A DNA stretch of 64,000 nucleotides from a virus (lineage: Duplodnaviria > Caudoviricetes): IMG/VR virus record IMGVR_UViG_3300006805_000023; one strand, written 5' to 3'. Below are positions 357 through 53,259 of this stretch, piece after piece. Position numbers and translations under genes: made by a program. The notes under the pieces were generated by a model. That model was not told the origin of the DNA. It was given only the letters and a program-made list of their open reading frames with translations, and ran no database searches. Within the stretch, counting starts at the first letter, position 1. Each line of letters opens with the position of its first letter.

Positions 357-676
357 GAGCACCACGCCCAACCAAAGTCCGTTCTTACACAGCCGAGTTC
401 AACCGGTTCAGAGTGCTGGCCACCCTCAAGGGTGGTGAAGTCGTCATGTCCCTCTACGCAAACAACGAGGTGGACTTTAGCGGCCACTGCCTCGCTGGTG
501 GAGTCTTCCCACGGGACGAGTTAATTAAGGAGGCGAAGACACGCCTCCGGAGCTACCAGGCCTACCAGAAACACCTCCGCTGGGACCGCAAGGAACTGGT
601 GCGCGAGGTCTATTTGCTAGCCACCTCATGTAACTCCTTCGAGGAGTTCGTGTCCAGGTTCATCAGGCCCCAGTAA
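353..676 (+). CDS. hypothetical protein
   Basis: 107 aa, ATGA overlap with upstream gene. Confidence 0.7.
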   Translation: MRAPRPTKVRSYTAEFNRFRVLATLKGGEVVMSLYANNEVDFSGHCLAGGVFPRDELIKEAKTRLRSYQAYQKHLRWDRKELVREVYLLATSCNSFEEFVSRFIRPQ

Positions 677-690
677 GGGGCCTGGTTGGT

Positions 691-972
691 CTACCGCAGG
701 CGGTGCAATGCCACTGCGATGATGCGCGGTGGAAACGTCCCGACCTCGATGTGGGAGAGAAGCTCACCGATCTCACCTGAGCGCAGGAACAGGCGCACCA
801 GACGTTTCTGGATCTGGATGATTTTGTCCATCGCCTCCTCCATGACCGTCGAGTAGGCTTCCTGGTTTTCAGCCGCGTAAAGCGACTGCCGGTTAAGGTG
901 GGAGCACCATTTCTCCTCGTTCTCAAGAAGGACGAAGAGTGAGTTGATCGCGGCGTTGGTTTCTTGTGTCAT
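691..972 (-). CDS. hypothetical protein
   Basis: 93 aa, own promoter. Confidence 0.7.
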   Translation of the reverse strand: MTQETNAAINSLFVLLENEEKWCSHLNRQSLYAAENQEAYSTVMEEAMDKIIQIQKRLVRLFLRSGEIGELLSHIEVGTFPPRIIAVALHRLR

Positions 973-977
973 TCAGG

Positions 978-1006
978 AGTATAACACAGGTCTTATACTT
1001 TGTCAA
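978..1006 (-). promoter_or_regulatory. sigma70-type early promoter, leaderless
   Basis: TTGACA-N17-TATACT, ATG 972 after 5 nt. Confidence 0.9.
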
Positions 1007-1077
1007 GTAGGACGAGCTTGGATACGGCTGAGCCGCCGGTGTCACCGGCGGCTCGTTTGTAACAGGTGTGGTCTCGG

Positions 1078-2415
1078 TCATTTGCCCTCCATCTTGTCGA
1101 TGATGTCTGCCAGTTCCTTCTTCTGCTCCTCGGTCAGCTGCCACTTGGCTGCCTCCAGGAGGTCCTTGAGGCGTTCCACGGGCGTCTTGACAGAGGGGAC
1201 GAACCAGCTTTTGACGATCTTCAGGATCTCCTTGACCTTGTGTGGGACCATAACCCACTTGACCCCGGCTGCCTGGGCGCGCTGCACCTCCTCCTGAGTG
1301 GTCACTGGGACGGCTGCCACGCCGTGCTCCTCTTCAAAGTCAGCCACCACGGCGGCGACGATCGGTGAGCTGGCCTTCGCGTAGGCACTCAAGTAGGCAG
1401 TGTCAGGCTTGCCGGATTTGACGAGGGCAACCGCCTCGGCTGTGGCGATCTTACGGGAGGCCCAGAGTTCAGCAGTCAAGGACTGCAGCTCGTAGGTGCT
1501 CATCAGACCGCGATCACGGTCCAGGGACACCTGATCAGGCCGGAACGAGTAGCCGCACTCGAACTCGTCGAAGGTGCAGACATAAAGGTTGCCCACGTAA
1601 ACGCGCCCCTTATGCTTAGGGTCGTTCAGGATGCCGTGCGGGATGCTGTCGGACAAGATGTTGGCCTCGACGACCTCCCAGTCCTTCTCGGCGATCCCCT
1701 CGATCTTGAAGACGACCTTGCTGGAGGTGATCGAGCTGTTGGTCACGACCTTGAGGGTCAGGATCTCGGTCTCGAACGTTGCCGAGTGCTTGAAGCTCGG
1801 AGTCCAGACCTCATCCTGATTGTTGATTGTGATCCGGTAACCAGCACGCAGCAGGGCCAGGAGCGCCAGCTTGTAGCCCTCACCGAACTTGCCGCGCAGC
1901 TTGGGGTCGGCGGCCTTCGTGGAGTTGCCGAGCACCAGCGAGGCGAGCTTCAGGACGCCATAGGAGCTGATCTGCAGCGTGCCGTCGCGGTAGGACAGGC
2001 CAGACTGGATACCGGACGACTCCTGTTGATCCAGGGCGTTCTGCCAAATCTCGCGCACCGCCTCCCACAAGCCCCAGCCAGCCACGTAGTTGGCGGAGAT
2101 CGGCAGCTCAATCTCCATCAAAGGGCGTGGTGCGTCTGATTCCACGTTGTCTTCCCTGCCGTTTTCATAGGCAGCGCTCAGCTTGGTGTCGCTGTTCCGG
2201 AAAAAGTCGAAGCGCGGATCGGGCCAGTGCTGTGGGCAGTCGCGGTTCGTGCAGTTGGCGTCGCCGCACTCATACTGAGCCCGCCATTCGGTCTCATACA
2301 CTTCGCAGGCCGTCGCGAAGCCCGCGTCGTCTTCATACTCCTCGCGCTGAGGGGCACCGTCTGGATAGGACTTGGTCTCTTGCAACCAGTAACGTTTGAC
2401 TAGGGTCTTGCTCAT
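1078..2415 (-). CDS. GHKL (HATPase_c) family ATPase
   Basis: REIWQNALD (N-box) and GKFGEGYK (G-box) motifs; about 100 aa N-terminal extension. Confidence 0.8.
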   Translation of the reverse strand: MSKTLVKRYWLQETKSYPDGAPQREEYEDDAGFATACEVYETEWRAQYECGDANCTNRDCPQHWPDPRFDFFRNSDTKLSAAYENGREDNVESDAPRPLMEIELPISANYVAGWGLWEAVREIWQNALDQQESSGIQSGLSYRDGTLQISSYGVLKLASLVLGNSTKAADPKLRGKFGEGYKLALLALLRAGYRITINNQDEVWTPSFKHSATFETEILTLKVVTNSSITSSKVVFKIEGIAEKDWEVVEANILSDSIPHGILNDPKHKGRVYVGNLYVCTFDEFECGYSFRPDQVSLDRDRGLMSTYELQSLTAELWASRKIATAEAVALVKSGKPDTAYLSAYAKASSPIVAAVVADFEEEHGVAAVPVTTQEEVQRAQAAGVKWVMVPHKVKEILKIVKSWFVPSVKTPVERLKDLLEAAKWQLTEEQKKELADIIDKMEGK

Positions 2416-2445
2416 GTCGGGTGGTGTGGGTGTGTGGTGCTGAGG

Positions 2446-3078
2446 TTAAGGGACGATGCTCTCGCGGGTCTTTCGGGCCAGCCAGACAGCCTCGTGAGCG
2501 AGGGTGTTGTCGTATTCTTCGGTCTTCTTTCGTGAGCAGAGCCCGGTCAGGGCACCGGTAGCCAGCGTCACCAAGTCCAGGTGCTCCTGGGTCGCCACGC
2601 GGGTGGTCAGGCCCTTGACCTGCTGCTCCAGGGCGGCGATCCGCTGAATATCACCCGCAGGGTCGGAGCGCGTCTCCAGCTGATGGACGTAGGAACGGAT
2701 GTGGGGCGGGAGGGCCTCGATCTCGCCGGGTGCGACCTTGTAGCTGGTGTTGGCTGGCAGCGGAGTGGCACGGCTGGACAGCACGCTGTTTTCGGGGCAG
2801 AAGAAGGAGAACAGCGCTGGAAGGATGAGCGTCCGCATGTGGACCTCGTTGAGCTGGCACAGGACGTTGCTCTCGTGATAGTTGGCCGCACTCCGGTTCT
2901 CGAACTCCAGGGGGCCGCCTGGAACCCACTTCGCCATGATGTAGTCGCCGACCGTGATCACGAAGTATTGCTGGGTGGTGTGGCCGTCCTTTTGCTCCGA
3001 GACCATACGGGCGCAGGCCTCGCAGGAGACCCCGCAGAGAGTGAAGGAGACGGGAATGTGGGTAGTCATGGTGTTCAT
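2446..3078 (-). CDS. hypothetical protein, paralog of 3075..3380
   Basis: ITVGDYIMAKWVPGGPLEFENRSA matches neighbour. Confidence 0.7.
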   Translation of the reverse strand: MNTMTTHIPVSFTLCGVSCEACARMVSEQKDGHTTQQYFVITVGDYIMAKWVPGGPLEFENRSAANYHESNVLCQLNEVHMRTLILPALFSFFCPENSVLSSRATPLPANTSYKVAPGEIEALPPHIRSYVHQLETRSDPAGDIQRIAALEQQVKGLTTRVATQEHLDLVTLATGALTGLCSRKKTEEYDNTLAHEAVWLARKTRESIVP

Positions 3079-3380
3079 ATGGAAGAGACGTCGGGTTTGA
3101 GTTTCATGAGAACGGCTGGGATGATCTGCTTCGCCATGACCTCTGGAGTGACTTTGGCAAGCGGGTGGTCTGGATTGCCGTAGCCTTCGGCGCTATTGTT
3201 GGAGAACTCCATTGGCATGTCTGGTTTCCAGGTGACGAGCAAATAGTCCCCCATCGTGATCGTCAGTTCAGTAGCGACGGTCTCAAACAGAGCCCGCGAC
3301 AAAGTGAGGCGACCGTTGACGTCGTGGGAGACGCCGTCCATCACGAAGGTGGTGGGCAGGTAAGTGGTAAATTCAGTCAT
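3075..3380 (-). CDS. hypothetical protein, paralog of 2446..3078
   Basis: ITMGDYLLVTWKPDMPMEFSNNSA; own promoter. Confidence 0.75.
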   Translation of the reverse strand: MTEFTTYLPTTFVMDGVSHDVNGRLTLSRALFETVATELTITMGDYLLVTWKPDMPMEFSNNSAEGYGNPDHPLAKVTPEVMAKQIIPAVLMKLKPDVSSI

Positions 3381-3386
3381 GGTGGT

Positions 3387-3415
3387 AGTCTATAGGCTGA
3401 GGTTGCGTCGGTCAA
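3387..3415 (-). promoter_or_regulatory. sigma70-type early promoter, leaderless
   Basis: TTGACC-N17-TAGACT, ATG 3380 after 6 nt. Confidence 0.8.
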
Positions 3416-3420
3416 TCTGG

Positions 3421-3786
3421 TTATTCGGCGTTGGCTTCCAGTTCCGCCATGTCCACGATGTCCTGCACGGTGGTGTGAATGAAACGCCAGTAAGCGGTCA
3501 CATACTTGGCTGCTGCTTTGTGGCGTGACTCTTCGGTAGCGCAGCACGGCCAAAACATTCCAGCGAACAACTCAGCGCCCTCACGGACTGCACGACGAGC
3601 TGCCAGCCAGGTGCGTCTCTCGTTGCCGTTCTTGGAATCCTTCAGATGAACTCCCTCTTGCAGGTCCTTGATGGCGTGGTGGGTCCAGGCGGTGAGACCA
3701 AGCCCGTTTTCACTGGCGGTCTGCAGGATCTTGGCGGTTGCGGCGGAACGGAACTTGCTGGCGCGGAAGGTAGTGGGGTTGCTCAT
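3421..3786 (-). CDS. hypothetical protein
   Basis: start moved to promoter-adjacent ATG 3786. Confidence 0.7.
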   Translation of the reverse strand: MSNPTTFRASKFRSAATAKILQTASENGLGLTAWTHHAIKDLQEGVHLKDSKNGNERRTWLAARRAVREGAELFAGMFWPCCATEESRHKAAAKYVTAYWRFIHTTVQDIVDMAELEANAE

Positions 3787-3791
3787 CCATG

Positions 3792-3820
3792 AACCTAACA
3801 CAGACCTTGACGTTTGTCAA
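3792..3820 (-). promoter_or_regulatory. sigma70-type early promoter, leaderless
   Basis: TTGACA-N17-TAGGTT, ATG 3786 after 5 nt. Confidence 0.9.
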
Positions 3821-4449
3821 GTGGACCAGAAGCGAGGCTTGAAGGCATCGGGTAGCTCGACTTGGTACTGGTCGGTCGGAGGGTTGACCTTGACGGCCCT
3901 GGAGACGATATCCGGGTTGTACACCACCATGACGAGAGCGCCACCGTGGTAGCGGAACACTCCGTAGTCCACGCCCTGATCGACCAGCAGCTGGCGCAGG
4001 GCTGTGGTCCGGCTTGGGATCAGAGCGTCGCTGTTGATGCAGAGGTTGACCAAAGAATCGGCATCAATGGTGCTTTCACCAGGGCTGCGGCTGCGACCAT
4101 AGCGCTCGATGTCAGCCAGGAGCTTCTTGCGCAAGGCAACCTTGACGTAGGACTTCACGAAGTTGGCTGCGGTCTGAGAGTCGATCTCGACGTGGCTGAT
4201 GTCCATACCCTTGCGGACCGTCACCGCGTACACGCTGCCACCACCCTTTGAGTATTTCCGGGCCGTCGGGTAGTCGTTGGTCAGATAGAGGCCAGGACCG
4301 AACTCCCAGGAGCCGGTCTGACCGGGCTTGATGCCGCTCCTGATATCCAGGTTGCGCCCTCCGTGATACCACGTGACGGTGTCGTTGGTCGGGAGCGGCG
4401 TAGCGTCCTGCTCGTGGAGCTGAAGTAGGAGAGAAGTGATCGAGATCAT
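3817..4449 (-). CDS. ADP-ribosyltransferase-fold protein (PARP/DUF3990-like) with type-B N-terminal tag
   Basis: WYHG ... FGPGLYLTND...ARKY pattern; N-terminus MISITSLLLQLHE. Confidence 0.65.
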   Translation of the reverse strand: MISITSLLLQLHEQDATPLPTNDTVTWYHGGRNLDIRSGIKPGQTGSWEFGPGLYLTNDYPTARKYSKGGGSVYAVTVRKGMDISHVEIDSQTAANFVKSYVKVALRKKLLADIERYGRSRSPGESTIDADSLVNLCINSDALIPSRTTALRQLLVDQGVDYGVFRYHGGALVMVVYNPDIVSRAVKVNPPTDQYQVELPDAFKPRFWST

Positions 4450-4850
4450 GCGAGAGCGAGCTGACGTGATTTGCCTTTGGCCCGGAAGCGCTCAGGCTGG
4501 TCGCTGAGCCCATGCGAATAAGAGAAGGCAGCGCCACCGGCGACCTTGTCATGGTAAGTGACGTGCTTGAGGTCATCAAAACCACGCTTTGCCAGAAGGG
4601 CGTCCACGACTGCTTGATCCAGGGGAGTCGGCTGCTCCCACCAAAATACTGTGTTGGAGCCCTCTGGATAGCGCCACCGTTTACCACGCAGCAGGTTGAG
4701 GCTTTTATGCGACGGCACCGCCTCGTCCCCAGCTTCTGGGTCGTAGGTGGCACGCTGAGTCTGGACCTGTCCATCCTGGAGAACCGTCCCTATGACCAGG
4801 GCAAGAGCAGCTTCACAAAGGTACAACAGGGAGGAGGTAACGGAAAACAT
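4446..4850 (-). CDS. hypothetical protein with type-B tag
   Basis: MFSVTSSLLYLCE; late motif upstream. Confidence 0.7.
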   Translation of the reverse strand: MFSVTSSLLYLCEAALALVIGTVLQDGQVQTQRATYDPEAGDEAVPSHKSLNLLRGKRWRYPEGSNTVFWWEQPTPLDQAVVDALLAKRGFDDLKHVTYHDKVAGGAAFSYSHGLSDQPERFRAKGKSRQLALA

Positions 4851-4854
4851 CCGC

Positions 4855-4863
4855 GATACCTAG
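4855..4863 (-). promoter_or_regulatory. putative late promoter
   Basis: CTAGGTATC, 4 nt before ATG 4850. Confidence 0.7.
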
Positions 4864-5180
4864 AGCTTGGCAATAATCGGCTTAGCCGCTTCGTTGAAAT
4901 CGTGAAAGGTCTCCTGCGCCCCGCCAGCCTGCAAAGCTTGTCTGAGAGGGGCCTCCCAGTCAAGACAAAGCTCAGACCACTCTGGGAGCAGATCAAGCTG
5001 CCTGTTCTCCGTATAACGGTGTTTCCACGGGTTGAGAATAGCTGGCGCGTCGTCCTCACCCCAGCCCTCAATAAAGTGGCCGACAGCTTGTCTGGCGATC
5101 GGGTCCATTTGCTCAGCAGTGATGGCGGTGCCATGCTCCTCCTTAAGGAGGCTCTCAACCAGTTTGTCAGCGTTTTTCAT
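4860..5180 (-). CDS. hypothetical protein with type-A tag
   Basis: start at 5180 (MKNADKLVESLLKE), ATGA-coupled to upstream stop. Confidence 0.75.
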   Translation of the reverse strand: MKNADKLVESLLKEEHGTAITAEQMDPIARQAVGHFIEGWGEDDAPAILNPWKHRYTENRQLDLLPEWSELCLDWEAPLRQALQAGGAQETFHDFNEAAKPIIAKL

Positions 5181-5854
5181 AGTGCAACGATATTTAGGAC
5201 CTTCAGCATCCCGATCCCACAGGTCACCTTCAGGGTTTTGTCGATAAACTCCCAGGTCTTCTCGAACTGCGGCTTGACCCGGTTCCAGAATTTGTGGACC
5301 GTGGTCCGGCGACCCGGCAGCACAATATCGTGGAAGGACACCAGCTTGGAGTTGCGGCGAACGCGCTCGAAGTCGATCGTCACCCACTCGTCCTGATGAC
5401 GGGCGTCGATCAGTGTGAGGCCGTACTGCTCGTCCTTGAGGTCGATCAGCTCAGAGCTTTGCTGCCTGAACTCCACGTCCGGGAAGCGTGCTTTGTAGAG
5501 GTCCCAGTCAATCAGGTTGTTCGCGATGTCGTAGCCGACGCTCCCCTGGTAGAGAGGGTTGATGGCGCGCAGGTAGGAGTCGGTGATGAACCAGGAGCCA
5601 CCGGAGGCCACGCCGACCTCAAGGTAACGGTCAACCCGTCCGGACTCGAAGACGTTGCCGACCGTCACCAGATAACGGGCGAACTCGTCCGGCACTTGCA
5701 GGCAGCGCAGGTGGGAGCCCTTCAGACCGGCTGGCTTGAAATGGCAGTGCAGAGTCAGAAACTCGTGCATGAAGGCGTAGTTGGAGAGGCGCGCACGATT
5801 CTTGGCGAAATAATCGTACAGTTCGTGGCAGCGGAGTTGGGCAGGTTCGGTCAT
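5177..5854 (-). CDS. class I SAM-dependent methyltransferase (Methyltransf_24-like)
   Basis: YLEVGVASGGS, LIDARH, FHDI motifs. Confidence 0.8.
   Translation of the reverse strand: MTEPAQLRCHELYDYFAKNRARLSNYAFMHEFLTLHCHFKPAGLKGSHLRCLQVPDEFARYLVTVGNVFESGRVDRYLEVGVASGGSWFITDSYLRAINPLYQGSVGYDIANNLIDWDLYKARFPDVEFRQQSSELIDLKDEQYGLTLIDARHQDEWVTIDFERVRRNSKLVSFHDIVLPGRRTTVHKFWNRVKPQFEKTWEFIDKTLKVTCGIGMLKVLNIVAL
5189..5197 (-). promoter_or_regulatory. putative late promoter
   Basis: CTAAATATC, 8 nt before ATG 5180. Confidence 0.65.
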
Positions 5855-5874
5855 CGGGATAAGAACTCTTGGTT

Positions 5875-6246
5875 TTACTCGACCTCTCTCATGCTCTCGC
5901 CGTCGTTGTAGGCATTGAGCTCAACGATCCCGATCCCAGACACGCCGAGGTAGCGCCGACCGGTCCTCAGGTCGGTGATCTCGTAGGAGCAGCGCGTGTG
6001 CTCATAGGCAGTGTCGTCGTAGAAGACGCCGGTCTTCACGATCCTGACGTGTTCCGATTTGAGGATGAGGCTGGACTTCGGCCCCAGCTCCTGGACCGGT
6101 GACTTAGGCTCGATCGTCATGGCCTTGTCTATCGCCTTGACCGTCTCCACGACAGTGTCACGGTGCTTACCCCAGTCAGTCTGGGTGAGCGCCACAACGA
6201 GAGCTGTGCAAGAGAGGGTCAGTACAAAGGCAGAGGTTTTAGTCAT
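5875..6246 (-). CDS. hypothetical protein with N-terminal membrane anchor or signal
   Basis: FVLTLSCTALVVAL hydrophobic N-terminus. Confidence 0.65.
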   Translation of the reverse strand: MTKTSAFVLTLSCTALVVALTQTDWGKHRDTVVETVKAIDKAMTIEPKSPVQELGPKSSLILKSEHVRIVKTGVFYDDTAYEHTRCSYEITDLRTGRRYLGVSGIGIVELNAYNDGESMREVE

Positions 6247-6416
6247 GGTGGGGAGAGGATAATGCCGAACTTAACCAGTACGATGTCCAGGAGCATCAGA
6301 GCGCAGCCCAGCACGAACTTCCAAGCGTAGCGCCTGGATGGGTAAACAGTCTCGGCGACGGACAAGCCGAAAAAGGCGAAGAACAGCGCTATGGCGACTG
6401 GGAAGGGGAGGGTCAT
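6243..6416 (-). CDS. small two-TM membrane protein (57 aa)
   Basis: hand-translated MTLPFPVAIALFFAFFGLS...FVLGCALMLLDIVLVKFGIILSPP; ATGA overlaps at both ends. Confidence 0.7.
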   Translation of the reverse strand: MTLPFPVAIALFFAFFGLSVAETVYPSRRYAWKFVLGCALMLLDIVLVKFGIILSPP

Positions 6417-6913
6417 CGTTTTGTTGATGGGAACTGGAGCCCTGGGAGCGAGGGGCCGCCTGGCTTTTCCTTCTTGGAGCGGTCGAAGTCAGCTTCGGAC
6501 AGCTTCGGCACCATCTTGCCCTTCAGACGCCGGATGTCGAAGTTGCACGGGGAGAGCATCTCGCCCTTCTTGTCGGAGCCGACCGGCTGGACGTCCACGT
6601 GGACGCAGCCGCTGAGGTGGTAGATCAGGTTGATCGCCGTCCCCTTGAAGCCGGTTGGGACGTCCTCAACGTCGCTGCCGAGCATGCTGAGCGGGACGTC
6701 CAGCTCTTCATACTCGATAGGCGTCTTGCCAGCAATGAAACGCGCTGCTGGGTAGAAGATCGCTTTGAGCGGCTGCCCGTCTTCCTTGTTGAGGCCGTGG
6801 GGCTGGAACAGATAAGAGCAGGAGCGGTTGGTGTCAATGTAGAGGCCGGTGAGGGTCCCAACGTTCAGGGTGGCGCTGTCGATGACCTTCTGATTGAGTT
6901 TGATGGTTCGCAT
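6413..6913 (-). CDS. hypothetical phage protein
   Basis: 166 aa; FKGTAINLIYHLSGCVHVDVQP resembles a common phage family. Confidence 0.75.
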   Translation of the reverse strand: MRTIKLNQKVIDSATLNVGTLTGLYIDTNRSCSYLFQPHGLNKEDGQPLKAIFYPAARFIAGKTPIEYEELDVPLSMLGSDVEDVPTGFKGTAINLIYHLSGCVHVDVQPVGSDKKGEMLSPCNFDIRRLKGKMVPKLSEADFDRSKKEKPGGPSLPGLQFPSTKR

Positions 6914-6933
6914 AGGTGGTGTTGATGAAGAAA

Positions 6934-7010
6934 TGGTGCATCCGGCAGGGATCGAACCTGCGGCCTAGAGTTTAGGAAACCCTTGCTCTTATCCACTGAG
7001 CTACGGATGC
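6934..7010 (-). tRNA. trnR: tRNA-Arg(CCU)
   Basis: cloverleaf: GCATCCG/CGGATGC acceptor stem, anticodon loop TTCCTAA, T-loop TTCGATC, encoded CCA. Confidence 0.95.
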
Positions 7011-7019
7011 AAAAAGTGT

Positions 7020-7317
7020 TTAGGCTCCCGAGAAATCGAAGTTCTCGCGCAGCTCCTTGTAACCGGGAGCTGGTGTGCCGACTGGCACCACAAACTCGAC
7101 CATAGGGGGCTCCCTTACGGGTGCCAAAGTCGGTCAGGGCCACCGTAACGGTGATGTCGGCCCTCCGGAGGAAAGGGAAGTCGGCCTGGGCGATATCCAC
7201 CAAGCTCAGGTAGGCGTTGATGTGACGCGTCGTTTCAAGGTGGTGGACGATCCTGACCTTGGTGTTAAACCGTGTGTCAGTCGGGCGGAAGATGAGCTTG
7301 GTGGGGGAGTCTGACAT
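7020..7317 (-). pseudogene. hypothetical protein interrupted by apparent +1 frameshift at C5 run
   Basis: removing one base at 7105-7109 gives 98 aa ending 9 nt before the tRNA. Confidence 0.5.
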
Positions 7318-7397
7318 TGTGGTGCGGCTGGCGGATCTGATTAAGGACCTTGTCTCTTACCTCCCGGAACGGTCAAGCGGGCGGCCAGTTCGAAACC

Positions 7398-7652
7398 TTA
7401 GTCCAGGAAGAGCCCCGTAACAAGGGGAGGTTTCGGCTTCCTCCTGCCAGGTCCTGCATGGGTAGTGTTGACGCAGACCTCGCAACGGGTCGAGTCGGCT
7501 GCCTTCTCACGGCCACAACAAGGGCAGAGCCCCTCCTGCTTCCAGCGGGCTTTGGTGACTTGCAGGGAGAGCGCCTTTTGGCGGCGTGATGCTTCGCTTA
7601 ACATGGCCACACTAAAAGCTCGCTGGGAGCGTCTGGCAACCTGCCCATTCAC
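7398..7652 (-). CDS. small CxxC Zn-binding hypothetical protein
   Basis: CPCC and CEVC motifs; GTG start uncertain. Confidence 0.55.
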   Translation of the reverse strand: MNGQVARRSQRAFSVAMLSEASRRQKALSLQVTKARWKQEGLCPCCGREKAADSTRCEVCVNTTHAGPGRRKPKPPLVTGLFLD

Positions 7653-7666
7653 ACCGAACCCCCGGC

Positions 7667-7695
7667 TTGACCAGAACCAGGCCAGCGTTTAACCT
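7667..7695 (+). promoter_or_regulatory. sigma70-type promoter
   Basis: TTGACC-N17-TAACCT, ATG 7704 after 8 nt. Confidence 0.65.
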
Positions 7696-7703
7696 CCTCT
7701 CTT

Positions 7704-8963
7704 ATGAAGAAACGCATCCACATCTTCGGCGGTGGCACTCTCGTCCACCTTGCCAACCACTTCGCAATCGCCGCCCCGGCTTACGGGGGGACAGCCCGGA
7801 CCCTGCAGCGCCTCTGTGGTGAGATCTGGCCTCAGGCTGAGACCGTCATGGAGATGACTAAGATGACCGGATTCCGTGCTCCTCCGGCTTGGATGGAAAC
7901 CGTGCAGGACGTCGAGAACCGGGTGAAAGTTCTCATCCGAGACCCCAACACCAAGGTGATCTTCTTCAACTGTGCGATGGCTGACTGGTATGATCCGATG
8001 ACAGTGAATGGTCGTTACGGGCCACGCCCCTCAACTCACACCGGCAGCGGCCTGGACTTGCACCTGATGCCGACCCCGAAGGTCATCAACCTGATCCGCA
8101 AGGAGCGTAAGGACATCTTCCTGATCGGCTTCAAATCGGTCTCCCAGACGACGGGCCAGGAGGCTTATCTGGCTGGGCTCCGGCTGTGCAAGGAGGCGTC
8201 CTGCAACCTCGTGCTGGTCAACGACGCCGCGACCCGGCGCAACATGGTGGTGACGCCGGAGGAGGCCTCCTACCACGATGGGATTGAGAATCGCGACGAA
8301 GCCCTGCGCGGCCTCGTCGAAATGGCAAAGCTGCGCAGCCACCTGACCTTCACCCGTTCCACGGTCATCAAGGGAGAGCCGGTCCCGTGGGACAGCGCTG
8401 CGGTGCCGTCCAGCCTCCGGACCGTCGTCGATCACTGCCGGAAGGCCAAGGCCTATAAGCCCTTCAACGGTGGCGGGACGGTCGGCCATTTCGCGGTGAA
8501 GCTCGCCGAGACCAAGTTCTTGACCTCGATTCGCCGGTCCAACTTCAACGACCTCGACAAGGTCGGGCTGGTGCTGGTCGAGACGGACGGCCCCGACACC
8601 GTGCTGGCCTATGGTGCCAAGCCCTCGGTCGGGGGTCAGAGTCAGCGCAAGATCTTCCGCGATCACGTCGGCTTCGACTGCGTGGTGCACTTCCATTGCC
8701 CGATGAAACCGGACGCCCCCGACGCCATCCCGGTGCGCAGCCAGCGCGAAGTGGAGTGCGGCAGTTTTGAGTGCGGGTCTAACACGTCACAGGGGCTCGC
8801 CCAGTTCGGCAGCCTGAAGGCTGTGATGCTTGACCAGCACGGCCCCAACATCATCTTCCCAAAGTCGATCGACCCTCAAGAGGTAATCGACTTCATCGAA
8901 CGCAATTTCGACCTCGACAAAAAGACCGGTGGCTACCAACTCCCCCAAGCCCAAGAGTCGTAA
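7704..8963 (+). CDS. CoaB/DFP-like (phosphopantothenoylcysteine synthetase) domain fused to class II aldolase/adducin-like domain
   Basis: GGGT, FFNCAMADW, PKVI, LIGFKS, CNLVLVND (CoaB-like); C-terminal GHFAVK and VVHFH (HxH). Confidence 0.7.
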   Translation: MKKRIHIFGGGTLVHLANHFAIAAPAYGGTARTLQRLCGEIWPQAETVMEMTKMTGFRAPPAWMETVQDVENRVKVLIRDPNTKVIFFNCAMADWYDPMTVNGRYGPRPSTHTGSGLDLHLMPTPKVINLIRKERKDIFLIGFKSVSQTTGQEAYLAGLRLCKEASCNLVLVNDAATRRNMVVTPEEASYHDGIENRDEALRGLVEMAKLRSHLTFTRSTVIKGEPVPWDSAAVPSSLRTVVDHCRKAKAYKPFNGGGTVGHFAVKLAETKFLTSIRRSNFNDLDKVGLVLVETDGPDTVLAYGAKPSVGGQSQRKIFRDHVGFDCVVHFHCPMKPDAPDAIPVRSQREVECGSFECGSNTSQGLAQFGSLKAVMLDQHGPNIIFPKSIDPQEVIDFIERNFDLDKKTGGYQLPQAQES

Positions 8964-9510
8964 GTGCGCTGACTGCGGTGCTGACAGCGCCCGGTTTCGT
9001 TGCCCCGGCTGCTACAGCAAGAGAGCCAGGGTCCGGCCCTGCGCAGACTGCGGGAACCCAGCCCGGAAGACGCGCTGTTACACCTGCTACGGCAAGTTGG
9101 CGCGCAAAACTGAGGGGCATCAGACCAGCAGGGCTGCCAGTTATGCTACGAACCGTGATAAGATAATCGCGTCCAAGAGGGCCATCGCAACCTCTTGCTT
9201 CCGCAACTTCCTACTCAACCGAATTCGCAGGCCGATGGACGCCAAAAGAGGGCGGGAGAACGACCTCACCATCGAGTTTCTCATGAAGCTGCTTGAGAAG
9301 CAAGGCAAACGATGCGCGCTTTCTGGGCTCTTGATGACTCACACGCGTAACAGCCTGTTCGACGTCTCAATCGACCGTAAAGACTCCAAGCGCGGCCATA
9401 CTCAGGACAACGTTCAGCTGGTCTGCAAGTTCATCAACACCGGCAAAGCCCATCACACCGACGAGGAAGCACTCATTTTCATCAACCAACTCAGACAACC
9501 CTTATCATGA
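8929..9510 (+). CDS. HNH-like endonuclease with N-terminal CxxC repeats
   Basis: CALSG...SIDRKDSKRGHTQDNVQLVCKFIN; four CxxC pairs. Confidence 0.75.
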   Translation: MATNSPKPKSRKCADCGADSARFRCPGCYSKRARVRPCADCGNPARKTRCYTCYGKLARKTEGHQTSRAASYATNRDKIIASKRAIATSCFRNFLLNRIRRPMDAKRGRENDLTIEFLMKLLEKQGKRCALSGLLMTHTRNSLFDVSIDRKDSKRGHTQDNVQLVCKFINTGKAHHTDEEALIFINQLRQPLS

Positions 9511-10031
9511 AAGCCGTTACCCTTGCTTTGTTTATTCTGGCCGTCATCGCCGCGTTGCTGCACGAGAGTGGCTGGCCCTACGTCCGTGAGTCACTCTGGA
9601 CCTTGGAGACATTGTGGATTGTTTTCCTGCTGATCACCAACCGAGACGGCACGGGACGCCCTGTGCCGTTCCAGCTGAGCTTCAGGCTGCAGCTCCTCAA
9701 GGTCATGTGGTGGTGCTTCGTAAGCAGGAAGAAGATCGGCCAGACTCTGGACAGGTTCAGACTCATGGTCGTTCCGCCCAACCTGGACCGGCTCTACGGT
9801 TCCACCCCGCACGAGGAGGAACTCAAGCAGCTGCATGTGACACTTCCTCAGAAACAGTACTACGCCCTGCAGTATCCGGACGGCAGCTACGCCTGGGAGT
9901 CGAACTGCCAAGGCTGGGGCTCAACACCTAAGAAGCCGAAGATTGGCGACGACTGGTGTTTCGACACCCAGCACGCCATCTGGGCTCTCCGCGATCTCAG
10001 AAACTGCAAACTCATCCGCATCACCGAATAA
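9507..10031 (+). CDS. hypothetical membrane protein
   Basis: hydrophobic N-terminal segments; ATGA overlap. Confidence 0.65.
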   Translation: MKAVTLALFILAVIAALLHESGWPYVRESLWTLETLWIVFLLITNRDGTGRPVPFQLSFRLQLLKVMWWCFVSRKKIGQTLDRFRLMVVPPNLDRLYGSTPHEEELKQLHVTLPQKQYYALQYPDGSYAWESNCQGWGSTPKKPKIGDDWCFDTQHAIWALRDLRNCKLIRITE

Positions 10032-10038
10032 CTCACCC

Positions 10039-10452
10039 ATGAACCACAAAACTGAAATCACCCTCGGAGCCGTCCCCTTCTTCGTCGAAGTTAGCGGCTA
10101 CACCGTCACCTTCACGGAGTCACGCCCGGTCTCAATGGGCCAGCACGGCGTCACCCGGATCATGCTCTCGCGCACTCCTGGACTCAACAGCACTCCAGGC
10201 ATCTGGACCATTACCCATGTGGAGCTTGGTACTCCAGCATCCCAGGTGTCCGAAGCTCACCTCTACTGCATCAACCGCTTCGGTGCCAGCTTCGCCCCTT
10301 ACATAGAGGAGTGGATTCCGGGGAAGATGAGGGACGGCGTGTGGACGCCCGTCCAGCAAACTACTTGTTCGGATGAAACCACACCTGCTCCTCCTCCTGA
10401 TTCTCCCATCCTGCGCAGCCCTGAAACTGACCCCGGCGCAAGCGGGTCTTGA
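10039..10452 (+). CDS. hypothetical protein
   Basis: start moved to ATG 10039; C-terminus overlaps next gene. Confidence 0.6.
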   Translation: MNHKTEITLGAVPFFVEVSGYTVTFTESRPVSMGQHGVTRIMLSRTPGLNSTPGIWTITHVELGTPASQVSEAHLYCINRFGASFAPYIEEWIPGKMRDGVWTPVQQTTCSDETTPAPPPDSPILRSPETDPGASGS

Positions 10453-10600
10453 CGCTGGCAAGGTCACCCTGGCAGCAGTCCTGGGGTTCTTCGCCGGTGG
10501 ACCGGCTGGAGCCATCGTGGGCGCTGCTGGTGCCGAGGCCGAAAACATCAGACGCATCGAAAAAACACTAGGCAAAAACCCCCGAAAAGTCACCAAATGA
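10373..10600 (+). CDS. putative small lipoprotein
   Basis: MKPHLLLLLILPS-C signal-like N-terminus, Gly/Ala-rich hydrophobic segment. Confidence 0.55.
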   Translation: MKPHLLLLLILPSCAALKLTPAQAGLDAGKVTLAAVLGFFAGGPAGAIVGAAGAEAENIRRIEKTLGKNPRKVTK

Positions 10601-10968
10601 AGTTCCTCAGTCCAGCCATCGCAGCCATCCTCATAGCCATTGCGCTCTCCGCGTTCATCTACCTCATCGTCCTGTTTATCGAGGCGTGCCGAAGGTTCCG
10701 GCTGTGGTGGCTGACGTCAAACCTCCCAGAGGACGGATGCTGGATTCTGCAACTGCGCGACAACCGGTTCCTGTGCTACAGGCCGGACGGCACCGAGGAC
10801 TCTGATCACGAGATGGTGGCTGCCTGCCGACGCAACGGGATCTTGACCAAGAACCAGCTGCTAAAGGCGATGCGCGATCACCACTGGAGTCACCGGATCG
10901 ACATGCCATCCGACCCAGACCAGCAGGACCTCCTGGCCTACCAGTACGACCTGCAACGCCGGGTGTAA
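10597..10968 (+). CDS. hypothetical membrane protein
   Basis: N-terminal TM helix. Confidence 0.7.
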   Translation: MKFLSPAIAAILIAIALSAFIYLIVLFIEACRRFRLWWLTSNLPEDGCWILQLRDNRFLCYRPDGTEDSDHEMVAACRRNGILTKNQLLKAMRDHHWSHRIDMPSDPDQQDLLAYQYDLQRRV

Positions 10969-10969
10969 C

Positions 10970-10998
10970 TTGACAAACGCCAGAAGGCGTGATAGGTT
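10970..10998 (+). promoter_or_regulatory. sigma70-type promoter, leaderless
   Basis: TTGACA-N17-TAGGTT, ATG 11005 after 6 nt. Confidence 0.85.
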
Positions 10999-11004
10999 CT
11001 GTCT

Positions 11005-11340
11005 ATGAAACCCGCCGACGCCCTCGTTGAGTCCCTCCTGGAGAACCCAGACATCAAGATCGAGGTCAGTAAGACCTTCGCAACCGAATACACGGTAGTC
11101 GCCAAGTATCGCGGCAGGCAGGCCGCCAAGGCCTCCGTCAAACTCATCGGGAAGAATCGGCTGCGCATGGCCGGGATCACGGTCGATGAGGAGTTCCGGC
11201 GCAAGGGGATCGCGACGGCCATCTACCGCCACCTTGAAAAGATGACTGATCGCACCTTCCAGCGCGGCCTGAAGCCGACCCGCGATGGCTCGGCCTTTTG
11301 GAACTCTCCGAAACGCTCCTGGGGAGATCCAGTCAAGTAG
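11005..11340 (+). CDS. GNAT acetyltransferase with type-A tag
   Basis: ITVDEEFRRKGIATAIY acetyl-CoA motif A; MKPADALVESLLE. Confidence 0.8.
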   Translation: MKPADALVESLLENPDIKIEVSKTFATEYTVVAKYRGRQAAKASVKLIGKNRLRMAGITVDEEFRRKGIATAIYRHLEKMTDRTFQRGLKPTRDGSAFWNSPKRSWGDPVK

Positions 11341-11343
11341 GAC

Positions 11344-11372
11344 TTGACAGGGCTCAAACTGTATAATAAACT
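11344..11372 (+). promoter_or_regulatory. sigma70-type promoter, leaderless
   Basis: TTGACA-N17-TAAACT, ATG 11379 after 6 nt. Confidence 0.75.
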
Positions 11373-11378
11373 ACTCCC

Positions 11379-11828
11379 ATGAAACCGACTCCCCTGCTCT
11401 CTGTTAAAAAACGACCCGTTAAAATCACAAAACCACTCAATGACAATTGTGTTCTGGTTGGTCGGGGAGTGTTCTCCTGGTTTAGGTCGGAACGAACAAG
11501 CGACCGCTATGGCTCGTGTTACACCGAGGGCGAGATGTGGTTCCCGGAAGAGGGTCAACGCGGACAGCTGGTTGCCATCATCAACGAGGCTCGCAACTCA
11601 GGCCATATCGGAGACATAGGTCGCGGCATTTATCCCGTCAAACCCAAGGTCGGAGACGCCTATCTACTGGGCGAGGGCGCAGCCACTAAAGTGGAAGCCG
11701 AAGGAACCAGCATCGTGGCCTTCGGTCTCAAGCCTGACGATGGGCGTTCTCATGACTGGCTTAACCCTTACCACCTCTACCGCTGTCATGACTCCGTGGT
11801 CGAGCTGCGCTGGTATCCATCCAAATGA
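11379..11828 (+). CDS. hypothetical protein
   Basis: 149 aa, promoter-adjacent start. Confidence 0.7.
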   Translation: MKPTPLLSVKKRPVKITKPLNDNCVLVGRGVFSWFRSERTSDRYGSCYTEGEMWFPEEGQRGQLVAIINEARNSGHIGDIGRGIYPVKPKVGDAYLLGEGAATKVEAEGTSIVAFGLKPDDGRSHDWLNPYHLYRCHDSVVELRWYPSK

Positions 11829-12073
11829 GCACCCCCGAAACACCCCGCAAAGTCGTCTGGAAGCACTTCCCGACCGACCCGGCCCACAGCTATCCCTCCA
11901 TGGAGGGTCTCATCGGGCGCAAGACGTTCGCTTTCGTGGTGTTCTCATCCCCGATCAAGTGCACTGTCGGCCCTGAAGACAACCAGATTGAACTTCACAC
12001 CAACAACGCCGCCCAGGTCAAAGAGATCTGTCTAGCCCTCTACGACGTCATCACCAGTGGCGCGGGGACTTGA
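11825..12073 (+). CDS. hypothetical protein
   Basis: 82 aa, ATGA overlap. Confidence 0.65.
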   Translation: MSTPETPRKVVWKHFPTDPAHSYPSMEGLIGRKTFAFVVFSSPIKCTVGPEDNQIELHTNNAAQVKEICLALYDVITSGAGT

Positions 12074-14147: not shown

Positions 14148-14453
14148 ATGATCGACATCGAAACCCTCACCAGCGACCAAAAGTCCCTGCTCCTCTACGT
14201 CGAGACCCGTGCTGTTGACCACTCCGGGAAGCTCAGGGATGACCAACTCAACGGCATCGACCGGGCCAACCTCAAGGCGTGGGACCGGGCCAACTTCGTG
14301 TCGTCCGACAAGATTCCGGCCAGTGGTCGTCAAAACGACGGCTGCTCGATGTGGGCATTCCTGTCGGACGAGGCATGGGAGGCCGCTGGCAAGCTGCGCC
14401 GTGCCAAGTCCAAGAGAATGTTCGAGAACCGCAACTGGCCTACCGGGAGATAG
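14148..14453 (+). CDS. hypothetical protein
   Basis: start moved to ATG 14148. Confidence 0.7.
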   Translation: MIDIETLTSDQKSLLLYVETRAVDHSGKLRDDQLNGIDRANLKAWDRANFVSSDKIPASGRQNDGCSMWAFLSDEAWEAAGKLRRAKSKRMFENRNWPTGR

Positions 14454-14456
14454 CCC

Positions 14457-14465
14457 CTAAGTATC
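14457..14465 (+). promoter_or_regulatory. putative late promoter
   Basis: CTAAGTATC, 5 nt before ATG 14471. Confidence 0.7.
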
Positions 14466-14470
14466 TGGGC

Positions 14471-15265
14471 ATGACGTCCGTTACCAACTCCCTTCTTTTC
14501 CTGACCGAGTCCTATTCACGGGAGAACGTAATGCTGTTCCAGTACCTGCAGAAAAAGCCACTCACCGTCGGCGACCTCTACTACGAGCTATCCGAGTGGC
14601 ACGGCTGGGACGACGCCCTGCAGGAGATCGGCCACAGTGCCGAGGAGCTGAGTGCTCTGGCTGCTGAAGACAACATGGACACCGTCTGGGAGATCTGTCA
14701 CAAGCTGGAGTCCTGGTTCGATCAGAACGAGTCGGCCAAAAACGACGCCGCGATGTTCCTGATGCGCGATTACCCGGACAACGCGCCGACCTGGGCTCAT
14801 CTGAGCCTCAACGGGAGCCGTCTGCTGCCATCTCAGACCTGGCTGGTGCACTGGACTGACGATGCTCTTGACATTTCCGCCGGAGGCTTCACGCACGGCA
14901 CCGACGACCCCACACGCCTGGGCCTCACACTCTACCGCAACAAGGAGTCCAAGAAGTTCGGTGGCTACAACTTCGCGTTCCGGGCCAACAGCCGCTACGC
15001 CTCCAACCCCGACCGGCGCTACGGCAGCGAGGTCGTGATCTTCCAGTCCAGCGGAGTTGACTGCTTCCACGGCGGCGATGACGAGGATCAGGTGATCTTC
15101 TGGGGTCAGTCGATCACCAGCAGGCCGATCGCCATCTCGCACCACACCGACGACGACAAGTGGGAGGTCCTCGGCAAGAAAGGCCGGGTCGTCGCCTTCG
15201 ACACCGTCGAGGAGTGCTTCAAGTGGGTGATCCAGCACTCCAGCAGCTACCGCAGTTCCTTATGA
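14471..15265 (+). CDS. possible ADP-ribosyltransferase-fold protein with type-B tag
   Basis: MTSVTNSLLFLTES; WLVHWT, GYNFAF, DDEDQVIFW resemble ART strand motifs. Confidence 0.5.
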   Translation: MTSVTNSLLFLTESYSRENVMLFQYLQKKPLTVGDLYYELSEWHGWDDALQEIGHSAEELSALAAEDNMDTVWEICHKLESWFDQNESAKNDAAMFLMRDYPDNAPTWAHLSLNGSRLLPSQTWLVHWTDDALDISAGGFTHGTDDPTRLGLTLYRNKESKKFGGYNFAFRANSRYASNPDRRYGSEVVIFQSSGVDCFHGGDDEDQVIFWGQSITSRPIAISHHTDDDKWEVLGKKGRVVAFDTVEECFKWVIQHSSSYRSSL

Positions 15266-51594: not shown

Positions 51595-53259
51595 TCAGCG
51601 CTTGTGGTAAATGAAGCAAAGCTTCTCAGAGCCCCAGACTTTCCGGAGCAGATTCGTCTCCGCGTAGGCCGCCTCAGTGGTTGACATCTTTTGAGCCCTG
51701 CCCCAGACGGTGCGCTTGTGAACGACCCAGCCGAGCTGATCCACGTAGTAGTAGTCGGGAGCGACCGTGTGACTGAACCGGAAGTTGCTGGCCCGGTAGA
51801 GGCCGCCTGAGTGGCCCATCGTGGTGTCCGCGTAGGTCACAACGTCCTGACCGCTAAGCTTGAGACAACGCGACAAAAACCACGATCCAAGGTTCTTGAC
51901 CTGGTAGGCCGGGTCAAGCCAGAACCGCGTCAGCTCCACGGCGTCCTTGTATTTGAGGGTCTGCTCGTTGCGCTGGAACGGCCCAAACGAACACGCCCCG
52001 ATGACGGTTTCACCCGAGAACAGCCCAAGATGTTGTTTGCCACGGCTTGACCCCAGGTAATGACGCGAGTAAACGACCTGCGACTCCCGGAACGTGATCT
52101 CGCGAATCGCCAGAGCCTTGAAGTCAACTTCGTGCAACGCTGGCTTGTCAGCCAGGCCTAGCATCTCTTTGATCCGGTGCAGCACGCGCCCCTCGGTGTG
52201 GAACTCAAGCTCCCAGATCACTGCCAGCCTGACACCGGGGCAATAGCGCTCCACGTAGGTCGCCTTAGCCTTGTCACGCGGACCGGCGGCTGGCTTGCCA
52301 TGCCAGTACTCCCCGTGGCACTCGATCAAAAGGTTGTGGTCTGGAACCCAGACGTCGAAGTTCCAGGGTCCGATCGGATGCTCGGACGCCCACTTGATGC
52401 CAAGCGAATCCAGGATAGCAAACACTGCCTTGTTGAGAGATGACACCACTGGTTGGTTAGCGCGGGCCACAGCCATCTTGGCCTTGACAACCTCGCTCTG
52501 CATGGCGTCCCTGACGCTCTGCTTAAACTCTCCAGTAGCGCCAAGCTCGCGTGACTTCGCACAAAAACGCTCCACCCAGACAGGGTCGTCCCAGTAGGAC
52601 TGCAGCCGGTGCTGCAGCTCAGGATCGGCCATCGCTTCCAGGTGCCTGCGCCGAACCTCCGGGTTGTCCCAGTTGGCCTTCACAATGCCTGTCAGGCGCT
52701 CCCGGTACTCTGGGTTGGCCCAGCACTGCTGCGACATTGTGGACATAGCAGCCGCGTAGTCCGGGTCCTGCCAGCGCACCAGGGTGGCGGTGCGCAGCCG
52801 CTCGCGCAGGCTGATCGACCGCATCGCTAGCAAATGCCGGTCGCGCACCTCTGGGTTCGAGTACGACTCCTTGAGAGTCATAGCCATGTTGGCGCGGTAT
52901 ACCGGGTCTGCAGCACGCCTGCGGATCATGGTCAGCCAGCCCTCATCCTGTGACCGCTTTCTGATGGCGGCCCGCATCCGACCAGAAGTTTCTGGATCAG
53001 TCCAGGCCGCCTTGCTCTGCTGCGACAGGCGCTGGCGCTCTTCGGAAGTGGCTGGCACGCCCTTGTTATGTGGGACCACCCGTCCTTCAGCCTGTGCCTC
53101 CTTGAAACCGGCCTGCTGTTTCTCCCGATAGTCGGGTGACTTTATGACGCACTTAAAACAACGGGTCTCGCCCTTGCGCTTGCGGCGGGACACGGTCATG
53201 CGGTTCACGATCTCTATCGTTCCGCACGCCGAACATGTCACTGTGTAAACCTTAGCCAC
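51595..53259 (-). CDS. Zn-ribbon + helical repeats + DUF559/Vsr-like nuclease + Mom-like GNAT fusion
   Basis: CSAC/CFKC; W.(D/N)P.YR repeats; FDVW..IECHGEYWHG; VELTRFW..GSWFLSRCLK..TYAD..GHSGGLYRASNF. Confidence 0.75.
   Translation of the reverse strand: MAKVYTVTCSACGTIEIVNRMTVSRRKRKGETRCFKCVIKSPDYREKQQAGFKEAQAEGRVVPHNKGVPATSEERQRLSQQSKAAWTDPETSGRMRAAIRKRSQDEGWLTMIRRRAADPVYRANMAMTLKESYSNPEVRDRHLLAMRSISLRERLRTATLVRWQDPDYAAAMSTMSQQCWANPEYRERLTGIVKANWDNPEVRRRHLEAMADPELQHRLQSYWDDPVWVERFCAKSRELGATGEFKQSVRDAMQSEVVKAKMAVARANQPVVSSLNKAVFAILDSLGIKWASEHPIGPWNFDVWVPDHNLLIECHGEYWHGKPAAGPRDKAKATYVERYCPGVRLAVIWELEFHTEGRVLHRIKEMLGLADKPALHEVDFKALAIREITFRESQVVYSRHYLGSSRGKQHLGLFSGETVIGACSFGPFQRNEQTLKYKDAVELTRFWLDPAYQVKNLGSWFLSRCLKLSGQDVVTYADTTMGHSGGLYRASNFRFSHTVAPDYYYVDQLGWVVHKRTVWGRAQKMSTTEAAYAETNLLRKVWGSEKLCFIYHKR

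Follow-up and report, generated by a model that had tools for sequence, protein, structure and literature searches.

The gene considered here lies in a 64,000-nucleotide stretch of DNA from a large uncultured phage, the whole of which is referred to below as the window. It encodes a protein of two joined domains, and its 3' end runs into a second, smaller open reading frame. The features of the locus are as follows.

7704..8963, plus strand: CoaB-like::class II aldolase-like fusion gene, from the list of open reading frames (419 amino acids plus stop, ATG start).
7704..8348, plus strand: CoaB-fold N domain, residues 1–215 (structure Z of 22.1 to 2gk4; profile E of 2e-17).
8349..8390, plus strand: conserved linker, residues 216–229, FTRSTVxxGxPVxW, between the two structurally matched ranges.
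8391..8921, plus strand: class II aldolase-fold C domain, residues 230–406 (structure Z of 13.5–10.3; AraD alignment).
8929..9510, plus strand: 193-residue CxxC-rich ORF with an HNH-like C-terminal motif, from its translation (35-nt overlap with the 3' end of the fusion gene).

The start codon of the fusion gene is sound, because its homologues share the onset MKK.IHIFGGGT. An earlier note, made from the sequence alone, had described the product as a phage-encoded CoaB-like ligase joined to an aldolase-like domain, and every CoaB/DFP motif that it quoted was found in the 419-residue protein: GGGT at residues 9–12, FNCAMAD at 88–94, PKVI at 125–128, IGFKS at 141–145 and LVLVND at 169–174. The HxH motif that it had placed in the C-terminal part is also present, as VVHFH at 327–331. 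Bacterial CoaB is normally fused to the CoaC flavoprotein; Pfam detected no flavoprotein domain in the present protein, which is thus a fusion lacking the CoaC part, as had been proposed.

Single-sequence searches with Pfam gave marginal matches for both domains, at 25.3 bits for DFP (cut-off of 22; residues 64–180) and 22.4 bits for Aldolase_II (gathering cut-off of 22.2; residues 257–333). Scores against the NCBIfam CoaB and CoaBC equivalogs were 20–25 bits, far below the cut-offs of 217–265. A family profile of 60 members matched Streptococcus pneumoniae CoaB (2gk4) with an E value of 2e-17 over residues 3–204, and it matched the class II enzymes AraD (1k0w, 6.6e-5), aq_1979 (2irp, 5e-4) and FucA (0.02). 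Given that these profile matches replace the marginal single-sequence scores, both domain assignments are firm.

A structure model obtained with AlphaFold2 from the family alignment had a mean pLDDT of 95 and a pTM of 0.92, and it was aligned to about 48,000 solved chains. Residues 1–213 of the model matched CoaB 2gk4 with a Z score of 22.1 (rmsd of 2.1 Å over 191 residues), and other CoaB structures followed at 19.8 (4qji and 5int) and 17.0 (human enzyme, 1p9o); Foldseek returned CoaB for the N domain with an E value of 1e-10. Residues 230–406 matched class II enzymes with Z scores of 13.5 (1pvt), 13.0 (2fk5), 12.0 (1gt7), 10.9 (1jdi) and 10.3 (4m6r). By enzyme, these and related matches correspond to about 13 for FucA, 12.0 for RhaD, 11.9 for pyruvic oxime dioxygenase, 10.9 for AraD and 10.3 for APIP/MtnB; HMPDdc and YgbL were matched as well, and the top match, 1pvt, is a sugar-phosphate aldolase. 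Pfam, NCBIfam and structure searches yielded CoaB and class II aldolase matches only. The profile and structure matches thus divide the protein where the earlier note had expected a division, into a CoaB fold at residues 1–215 and a class II aldolase fold at 230–406: the N-terminus is CoaB-like, and the C domain is an aldolase fold rather than an extension of CoaB. Profiles and predicted structure together confirm that the phage protein is a real, highly conserved two-domain enzyme, modelled as a rebuilt CoA ligase followed by a putative metal-binding aldolase-type domain.

Conserved positions in the N domain include G10-G11-T12, H19, G28, D94, R108, K126, R135-K136-D137, F143-K144, N173-D174, E186 and R197. 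Alignment to genuine CoaB sequences showed that the GGT turn, the GFK strand and the (A/V)ND strand are retained. The invariant D94 falls on the Asp of the AVSDY/AAVADY segment; in CoaB, the Asp of AAVAD (D281 of the Mycobacterium smegmatis, or Msm, CoaBC) coordinates a cation together with the triphosphate of CTP (PMC7794376). The K-x-K-K loop of CoaB contacts the triphosphate from the opposing protomer (PMC7794376), this basic loop being supplied by the partner subunit. All that remains of the loop here is Lys or Arg at position 104 (Arg in this protein, Lys in most homologues) and R108, which aligns to one Lys of the KMKKK of 5int. The RxIxNxSSGK segment, which contains R207 and N211 of the Msm enzyme and the loop for the nucleotide phosphates (PMC7794376), has been lost: its Arg is replaced by F20, its Asn by A24 and SSGK by A26-Y27-G28-G29, within a family signature, HVxxHLALxAPAYGxTA, whose His19 is invariant. 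The retained D94 and basic-loop residues make it very probable that a nucleotide triphosphate is still bound by the N domain; the loss of RxIxNxSSGK in the alignment and the low equivalog scores lead us to judge that the domain does not act as a phosphopantothenate-cysteine ligase. The same replacements bear out the earlier description of the ligase as repurposed.

In the linker, S219, T220, G224 and W229 are invariant among close homologues. The C domain conserves T259-x-G261-H262, S275-x-R277, K306-P307-S308-x-G310, H329-x-H331, E351-C352-G353-S354-x-x-C357-G358 and H379-G380-P381-N382. H329 and H331 align on H95 and H97 of AraD, and the KPS phosphate-loop motif (K306-P307-S308) is kept. H379-G380, invariant in 60 sequences, lies at the position of the NHG motif, so that a complete HxH...H metal site can be assigned in a class II aldolase fold, the third His by motif and conservation. 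The carboxylate that serves as ligand or base after KPS(S) in this class (Glu73 of FucA, Asp76 of AraD) is replaced by Gly310, which is nearly invariant. Class II enzymes carry a second acid/base about 20 residues after HxH (Asp120 of AraD, Glu139 of APIP, Tyr113 of FucA). Nearly invariant Glu351 lies 20 residues past H331, its equivalence to that residue resting on spacing alone, and it falls within a family-specific motif, ECGSxxCG, that includes two conserved Cys residues. Judged by these residues, the C domain looks catalytically competent but rewired. The type of reaction cannot be read from the fold, since no subfamily stands out among matches whose Z values lie within 3 units of each other.

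The window contains a DnaB-like helicase gene with a Hint/homing-endonuclease intein, a tail-fibre PHROG and a Mom-like gene, and in a maximum-likelihood tree of 123 sequences the protein falls within an all-viral clade of 8; it is therefore phage-encoded, as the earlier note had stated. Genes upstream of the ORF at 7704–8963 are divergent and small, and its neighbours gave no Pfam matches. The overlapping ORF at 8929..9510 contains four CxxC pairs and likewise has no Pfam match. Its C-terminal part recurs near the family gene in two other loci (L029 and L071), true HNH genes abut the family gene in a further two (L005 and L053), and it is probably a homing endonuclease rather than a functional partner. 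Two nearby ORFs that had been called ART-like (3817–4449 and 14279–15265) have no Pfam match. An ORF at 5177–5854 is methyltransferase-like at the motif level; it has no family match and does not recur near relatives. A dedicated methyltransferase partner was considered and rejected, no methyltransferase cluster recurring within 6–8 kb of the gene in the subfamily. Searches of the 64-kb window with HMMs for NadV, ADPRGH, Macro, NADAR, PARP, Thg1, His-phosphatase, CoaD-CoaE and others found no partner. The window is a clean phage example whose neighbours are uninformative, and the relatives of the gene supply the genomic context.

A word-indexed search returned 3400 database matches; the best 120 of these were all full-length, with identities of 55–79%, and none bore a functional name. 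An exhaustive search gave 539 clusters at 50% identity. The cluster to which the present protein belongs comes from a contig of 218,247 bases. The family is represented by at least 208 loci in IMG/VR, many of them on contigs of 200–570 kb, and by at least 235 loci in GTDB, mostly from Saccharibacteria and other CPR bacteria, Bdellovibrionales, Micavibrio, Polyangiaceae and alphaproteobacterial MAGs. Within Saccharimonadia, 4 of 301 sampled genomes carry the gene. The tree requires at least 5–6 switches between virus and bacterium on well-supported branches. The family is sporadic and has moved among predatory bacteria, CPR bacteria and jumbo phages. Identity across phages, CPR bacteria and predators is 55–60%, with the putative catalytic residues invariant, which argues for an active enzyme acting on a universal metabolite. 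No longer fused forms of the protein were found, which is weak evidence, and a 350-residue extension of one member (P0224) has no relatives. The N domain also occurs alone, as a protein of 200–260 residues, in cultured Pseudomonas (Otagovirus) and Caulobacter (Bertelyvirus) phages, and no homologue of the C domain was found elsewhere in the genomes of these phages. Protein atlas entries for the family are automatically named viral clusters only, and literature searches found no published description of a CoaB-like/aldolase-like fusion. The enzyme family is genuine and, in the papers searched, undescribed, and it is made from two known folds. Among enzyme families without a known reaction in giant phages and ultra-small bacteria, it ranks with the larger and better conserved.

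For a survey of neighbouring genes, ORFs were called in 160 loci, which were de-duplicated to 61 viral and 64 bacterial loci. Clustering of neighbours by BLAST and HMM revealed no universal partner gene among these 125 loci. A gene for Macro, ADPRGH, NADAR or PARP lies within 8 kb in 22 of the 61 phage loci. Among 28 large carrier records, 20 contain a NadV-type gene and 10 an ADPRGH gene. The published figures for jumbo phages, 33% and about 5%, respectively (PMC9503650), give binomial P values of 4e-5 and 6e-7, with the caveat that this background is a different set, of cultured phages. Where a record has an ADPRGH gene, that gene is located within 5 kb of the family gene in 6 of the 10 cases, in genomes of 270–480 kb (positional P of about 4e-7, or 1.4e-5 when two sister records count as one). 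A CobC-like His-phosphatase gene directly adjoins the family gene in three separate clades, one represented by L004, one by L008, L016 and L029, and one, of Saccharibacteria, by L115 and L140.

In bacterial loci the gene is usually single, and its commonest neighbour, present in 26 of 64, is a divergent gene for a TrmB-type regulator. With this regulator alongside, the gene looks like a self-contained, inducible and mobile cassette in bacteria. In Saccharimonadales (L137 and L115), gene and regulator are embedded in an NAD cluster, with NadD-NadE-NrtR-ADPRGH on one side and PncA-PncB(-PnuC) on the other; this context is confined to one bacterial lineage and to 4 of the 64 loci. The possibility that the gene substitutes for NadD in the Saccharibacteria cluster was rejected, because these bacteria do encode NadD, and do so even within that cluster. 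The strongest genomic link of the family is therefore to ADP-ribose/NAD+ genes, the link to CoaD-CoaE being weaker. The neighbourhood survey that the earlier note had suggested was in this respect informative, in that it brought out a recurrent ADP-ribose/NAD+ context absent from the functions offered there, although it yielded no universal partner. One of those functions, a base or glycan modifier, receives no support from any of the evidence gathered. The interpretation offered in the earlier note is supported in part, the amide-ligase activity that it proposed being at most a candidate.

We tentatively favour the reading that the protein is an active, autonomous bifunctional enzyme that acts on ADP-ribose or a phosphorylated derivative and serves ADP-ribose/NAD+ recycling rather than CoA biosynthesis. 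Substrates would be free ADP-ribose or a phosphorylated derivative released by the ADP-ribosylglycohydrolase, Macro or His-phosphatase partners, and the role would be ADP-ribose/NAD+ recycling during phage infection and salvage in CPR and predatory bacteria. We propose, with low confidence, a two-step enzyme whose substrate is ADP-ribose or some related cofactor fragment that carries a phosphate. In the first step, the CoaB-fold domain would bind a nucleoside triphosphate and a divalent cation through Asp94, Arg104 and Arg108 and transfer the NMP moiety to an acidic oxygen, of a carboxylate or phosphate, on a phosphorylated small molecule, with release of pyrophosphate. The acceptor would differ from that of CoaB, because the Arg, Asn and SSGK that serve the nucleotide and the cysteine step are lost. 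In the second step, His329, His331 and His379 of the aldolase-fold domain would hold a divalent metal, and Glu351 may act as the base; an enediolate would form on an alpha-hydroxy-carbonyl moiety, similar to that of a sugar phosphate, in the intermediate of the first step or in the one that follows it. Since the usual Glu or Asp is Gly310, the site would suit a reaction of the isomerase, epimerase, dehydratase or decarboxylase type better than classical aldol cleavage.

Our reserve about the ADP-ribose/NAD+ reading has several grounds. ADP-ribose has no carboxylate, so that CoaB-type chemistry would need a new acceptor; the context is found in a minority of loci, no more than roughly one phage locus in three having such genes near the family gene; the background rates come from another set of phages; and there is a real CoA signal. 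Large phages, moreover, cluster many accessory genes anyway, the NAD cluster comes from one lineage, and the window itself is without partners. A strict coupling of the two steps is countered by the occurrence of the N domain without the C domain in cultured phages. A narrower version, in which a single polypeptide would use a nucleoside triphosphate to re-activate ADP-ribose or ADP-ribose-1''-phosphate and turn it back towards NAD+ or another usable cofactor, we consider improbable. If true, it would represent a fourth, unrelated strategy for restoring NAD+, one that jumbo phages share with CPR epibionts and predatory bacteria and that combines a recycled CoA ligase with an aldolase-fold metal enzyme.

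A side branch of CoA metabolism is a less favoured but substantive alternative, and on balance a doubtful one. The CoaB-like domain would here activate a pantoate- or pantothenate-like phospho-acid, the C domain would act on a four-carbon acid 4-phosphate in the manner of 3-oxo-tetronate-4-phosphate decarboxylase, which belongs to the same family, and the product would feed the CoaD-CoaE of the phage or its host. A genuine CoaD-CoaE fusion gene is located immediately upstream of the family gene in one locus of the window's own clade (L003), with scores of 160 bits for TIGR01510 and 89 bits for TIGR00152, both of which exceed the cut-off, and a second such fusion lies 20 kb from the gene in the record of another locus (L024). 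CoaE is present in 5 of the 28 carrier records, although among 50,697 catalogued phage records no more than 67 have CoaD/E-like genes, and a MaoC hot-dog gene is directly downstream in 5 CPR loci. The nearest relative of the N domain is, moreover, genuine CoaB, and the protein shows a weak match to NCBIfam OxoTetrPhDc (E of 0.09). A candidate CoaD in CcrBL9 was discarded, having only a 21-bit cytidylyltransferase-like match. Set against this evidence are the loss of the residues specific to phosphopantothenate-cysteine ligase and the lack of CoA genes in 23 of the 28 carrier records, in the window and in the vicinity of most loci. The manipulation of CoA suggested in the earlier note thus finds support in a minority of carriers and none in the window. 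If the link holds, it would point to an unrecognised branch of CoA metabolism.

The gene is sporadic in distribution (4 of 301 Saccharimonadia genomes) and has moved horizontally between phages, epibionts and predators (at least 5–6 switches), a pattern that would also suit a small molecule of biological conflict: the enzyme might make or break an inhibitor or analogue of an NAD+/ADP-ribose signal, detoxify an antiviral nucleotide of the host, or confer resistance. Its travel as a cassette with its own regulator in bacteria and its location in accessory regions of jumbo phages, beside ADP-ribosyltransferase and hydrolase genes, are consistent with such a function. We nevertheless regard it as unlikely, given that proteins in an arms race do not usually keep 55–60% identity across very different hosts, a degree of conservation more in line with a housekeeping-type substrate, and that the papers searched tie no defence or anti-defence family to the fusion.

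Membership in a set for RNA or tRNA repair is improbable. The substrate of the enzyme would then be either the end of an RNA or the ADP-ribose cyclic phosphate that 2'-phosphotransferase repair leaves as a by-product. Thg1-like genes lie within 8 kb in 9 of the 61 phage loci, genes for RNA ligase, DNA ligase, HD, Metallophos and CYTH phosphoesterases recur near the gene in some phages, and Macro and NADAR genes have been tied to this repair route (PMC9503650). No such gene, however, recurs consistently or lies next to the family gene from clade to clade, bacterial loci are without them, and both folds are those of small-molecule enzymes. That the protein is an ordinary, merely divergent phosphopantothenate-cysteine ligase with an extra domain is hardly credible: the Pfam DFP score exceeds its cut-off and the CoaB fold is matched with a Z of 22, but about 25 bits against equivalog cut-offs of 217–265, the replacement of Arg, Asn and SSGK and the missing CoaC partner speak against it.

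The ADP-ribose/NAD+ reading, tentative as it is, would add a cofactor-salvage step in organisms that live off other cells. The function of the enzyme can be tested directly with purified protein, because both domains belong to well-understood enzyme classes and the remaining catalytic residues are clear.

Compared with known systems, the N domain resembles CoaB/PPCS (PF04127, EC 6.3.2.5), in particular the monofunctional streptococcal type (2gk4), across its entire fold and in GGT, GFK, (A/V)ND, the AxxD Asp for cation and triphosphate and, in part, the K-x-K-K loop, of which one basic position is kept. It differs from CoaB in its identity of only 16–18%, in carrying HLALxAPAYGxT with the invariant His19 in place of RxIxNxSSGK, and in having an aldolase-fold domain for a partner instead of CoaC. 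The C domain was compared with FucA, RhaD, the epimerase AraD, the dehydratase MtnB/APIP, the decarboxylases OtnC/HMPDdc and pyruvic oxime dioxygenase. It shares with the class II aldolase/adducin family (PF00596) the fold at residues 230–406, the KPS loop and HxH with a third His, and its near-invariant Glu resembles Asp120 of AraD and Glu139 of APIP in spacing. It departs from class II aldolases in having Gly310 at the carboxylate position and in the family-specific ECGSxxCG motif with its two conserved Cys residues.

According to the papers searched on NARP and aRES, ADP-ribose/NAD+ recycling is recognised as contested ground between phages and the defences that deplete NAD+. NARP1, as described there, consists of Adps and Namat and NARP3 of PnuC and an NadR-like protein, and NARP2 is also a system for NAD+ reconstitution by phages. 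Those papers contain no mention of the CoaB-like/aldolase-like family, with NARP3 and aRES concerning other proteins, and the NARP enzymes described in them (PRPP-synthetase-like, Nampt-like, NMNAT and kinase) have no relation to it in sequence or fold. The family resembles the NARP systems in its genomic company, namely NadV-type genes and Adpp-like Macro phosphatases (10.64898/2026.01.28.702374), and it may resemble NARP1, NARP2 and NARP3 in purpose, the restoring of NAD+ or handling of ADP-ribose during infection.

The 3' end of the CoaB-like/aldolase-like gene overlaps by 35 nt with a small ORF on the same strand:

Window 8929-9510, +, 193-aa ORF with CxxC pairs and an HNH-like motif

Four CxxC pairs precede the HNH-like motif (DNVQLVCKFINTGK) in this ORF, for which no match was obtained in Pfam. 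Its C-terminal part was seen again close to the CoaB-like/aldolase-like gene in two related loci, L029 and L071. Given that true HNH genes directly adjoin that gene in two other loci, L005 and L053, it seems to be a recurrent landing site for homing endonucleases.

The window also contains the following ORFs:

Window 4512-5396, +, spurious 294-aa ORF, overlapping the next
Window 5177-5854, -, 225-aa ORF, class I SAM-methyltransferase-like at motif level
Window 51595-53259, -, 554-aa HNH/REase-like and Mom-like protein (Pfam Mom, 8e-20; phrog_1384)
Window 53299-55791, -, DnaB-like replicative helicase with an intein

The methyltransferase-like motifs of the 225-aa ORF (LEVGVASGGSW ... LIDARH) were accompanied by no match in Pfam or NCBIfam, and the ORF did not recur near relatives of the CoaB-like/aldolase-like gene. 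The 554-aa protein consists of an HNH/REase-like NH2-terminal part fused to a Mom-like DNA-modification domain, and the helicase intein comprises Hint and homing-endonuclease domains.

Features of related loci and of the protein itself were as follows:

L003 (phage, IMGVR_UViG_3300017766_004476) 6783-7949, +, bifunctional CoaD-CoaE (NCBIfam)
L137 (Saccharimonadales MAG) 671-10285, compact NAD salvage island
L115 (Saccharimonadales MAG) 3195-11908, compact NAD salvage island
Protein residues 15-31 (window 7746-7796), family-specific motif HVxxHLALxAPAYGxTA

In both islands, the CoaB-like/aldolase-like gene and its own TrmB-type regulator are inserted amid genes for NadD, NadE, NrtR, ADP-ribosylglycohydrolase, PncA, PncB, and Nudix or PnuC. 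The phage-encoded protein of L003 joins pantetheine-phosphate adenylyltransferase to dephospho-CoA kinase, with each half exceeding its NCBIfam cut-off, and a 380-aa ORF in the record behind L024 resembles it; CoaD/E-like genes are rare among catalogued phages (67 of 50,697 records). The family-specific motif is similar to THVALTARAFGA of archaeal tRNA Cm56 methyltransferase (PDB 8x6k), a sequence likeness that is probably due to chance, given its E-value of merely 0.2-0.35.
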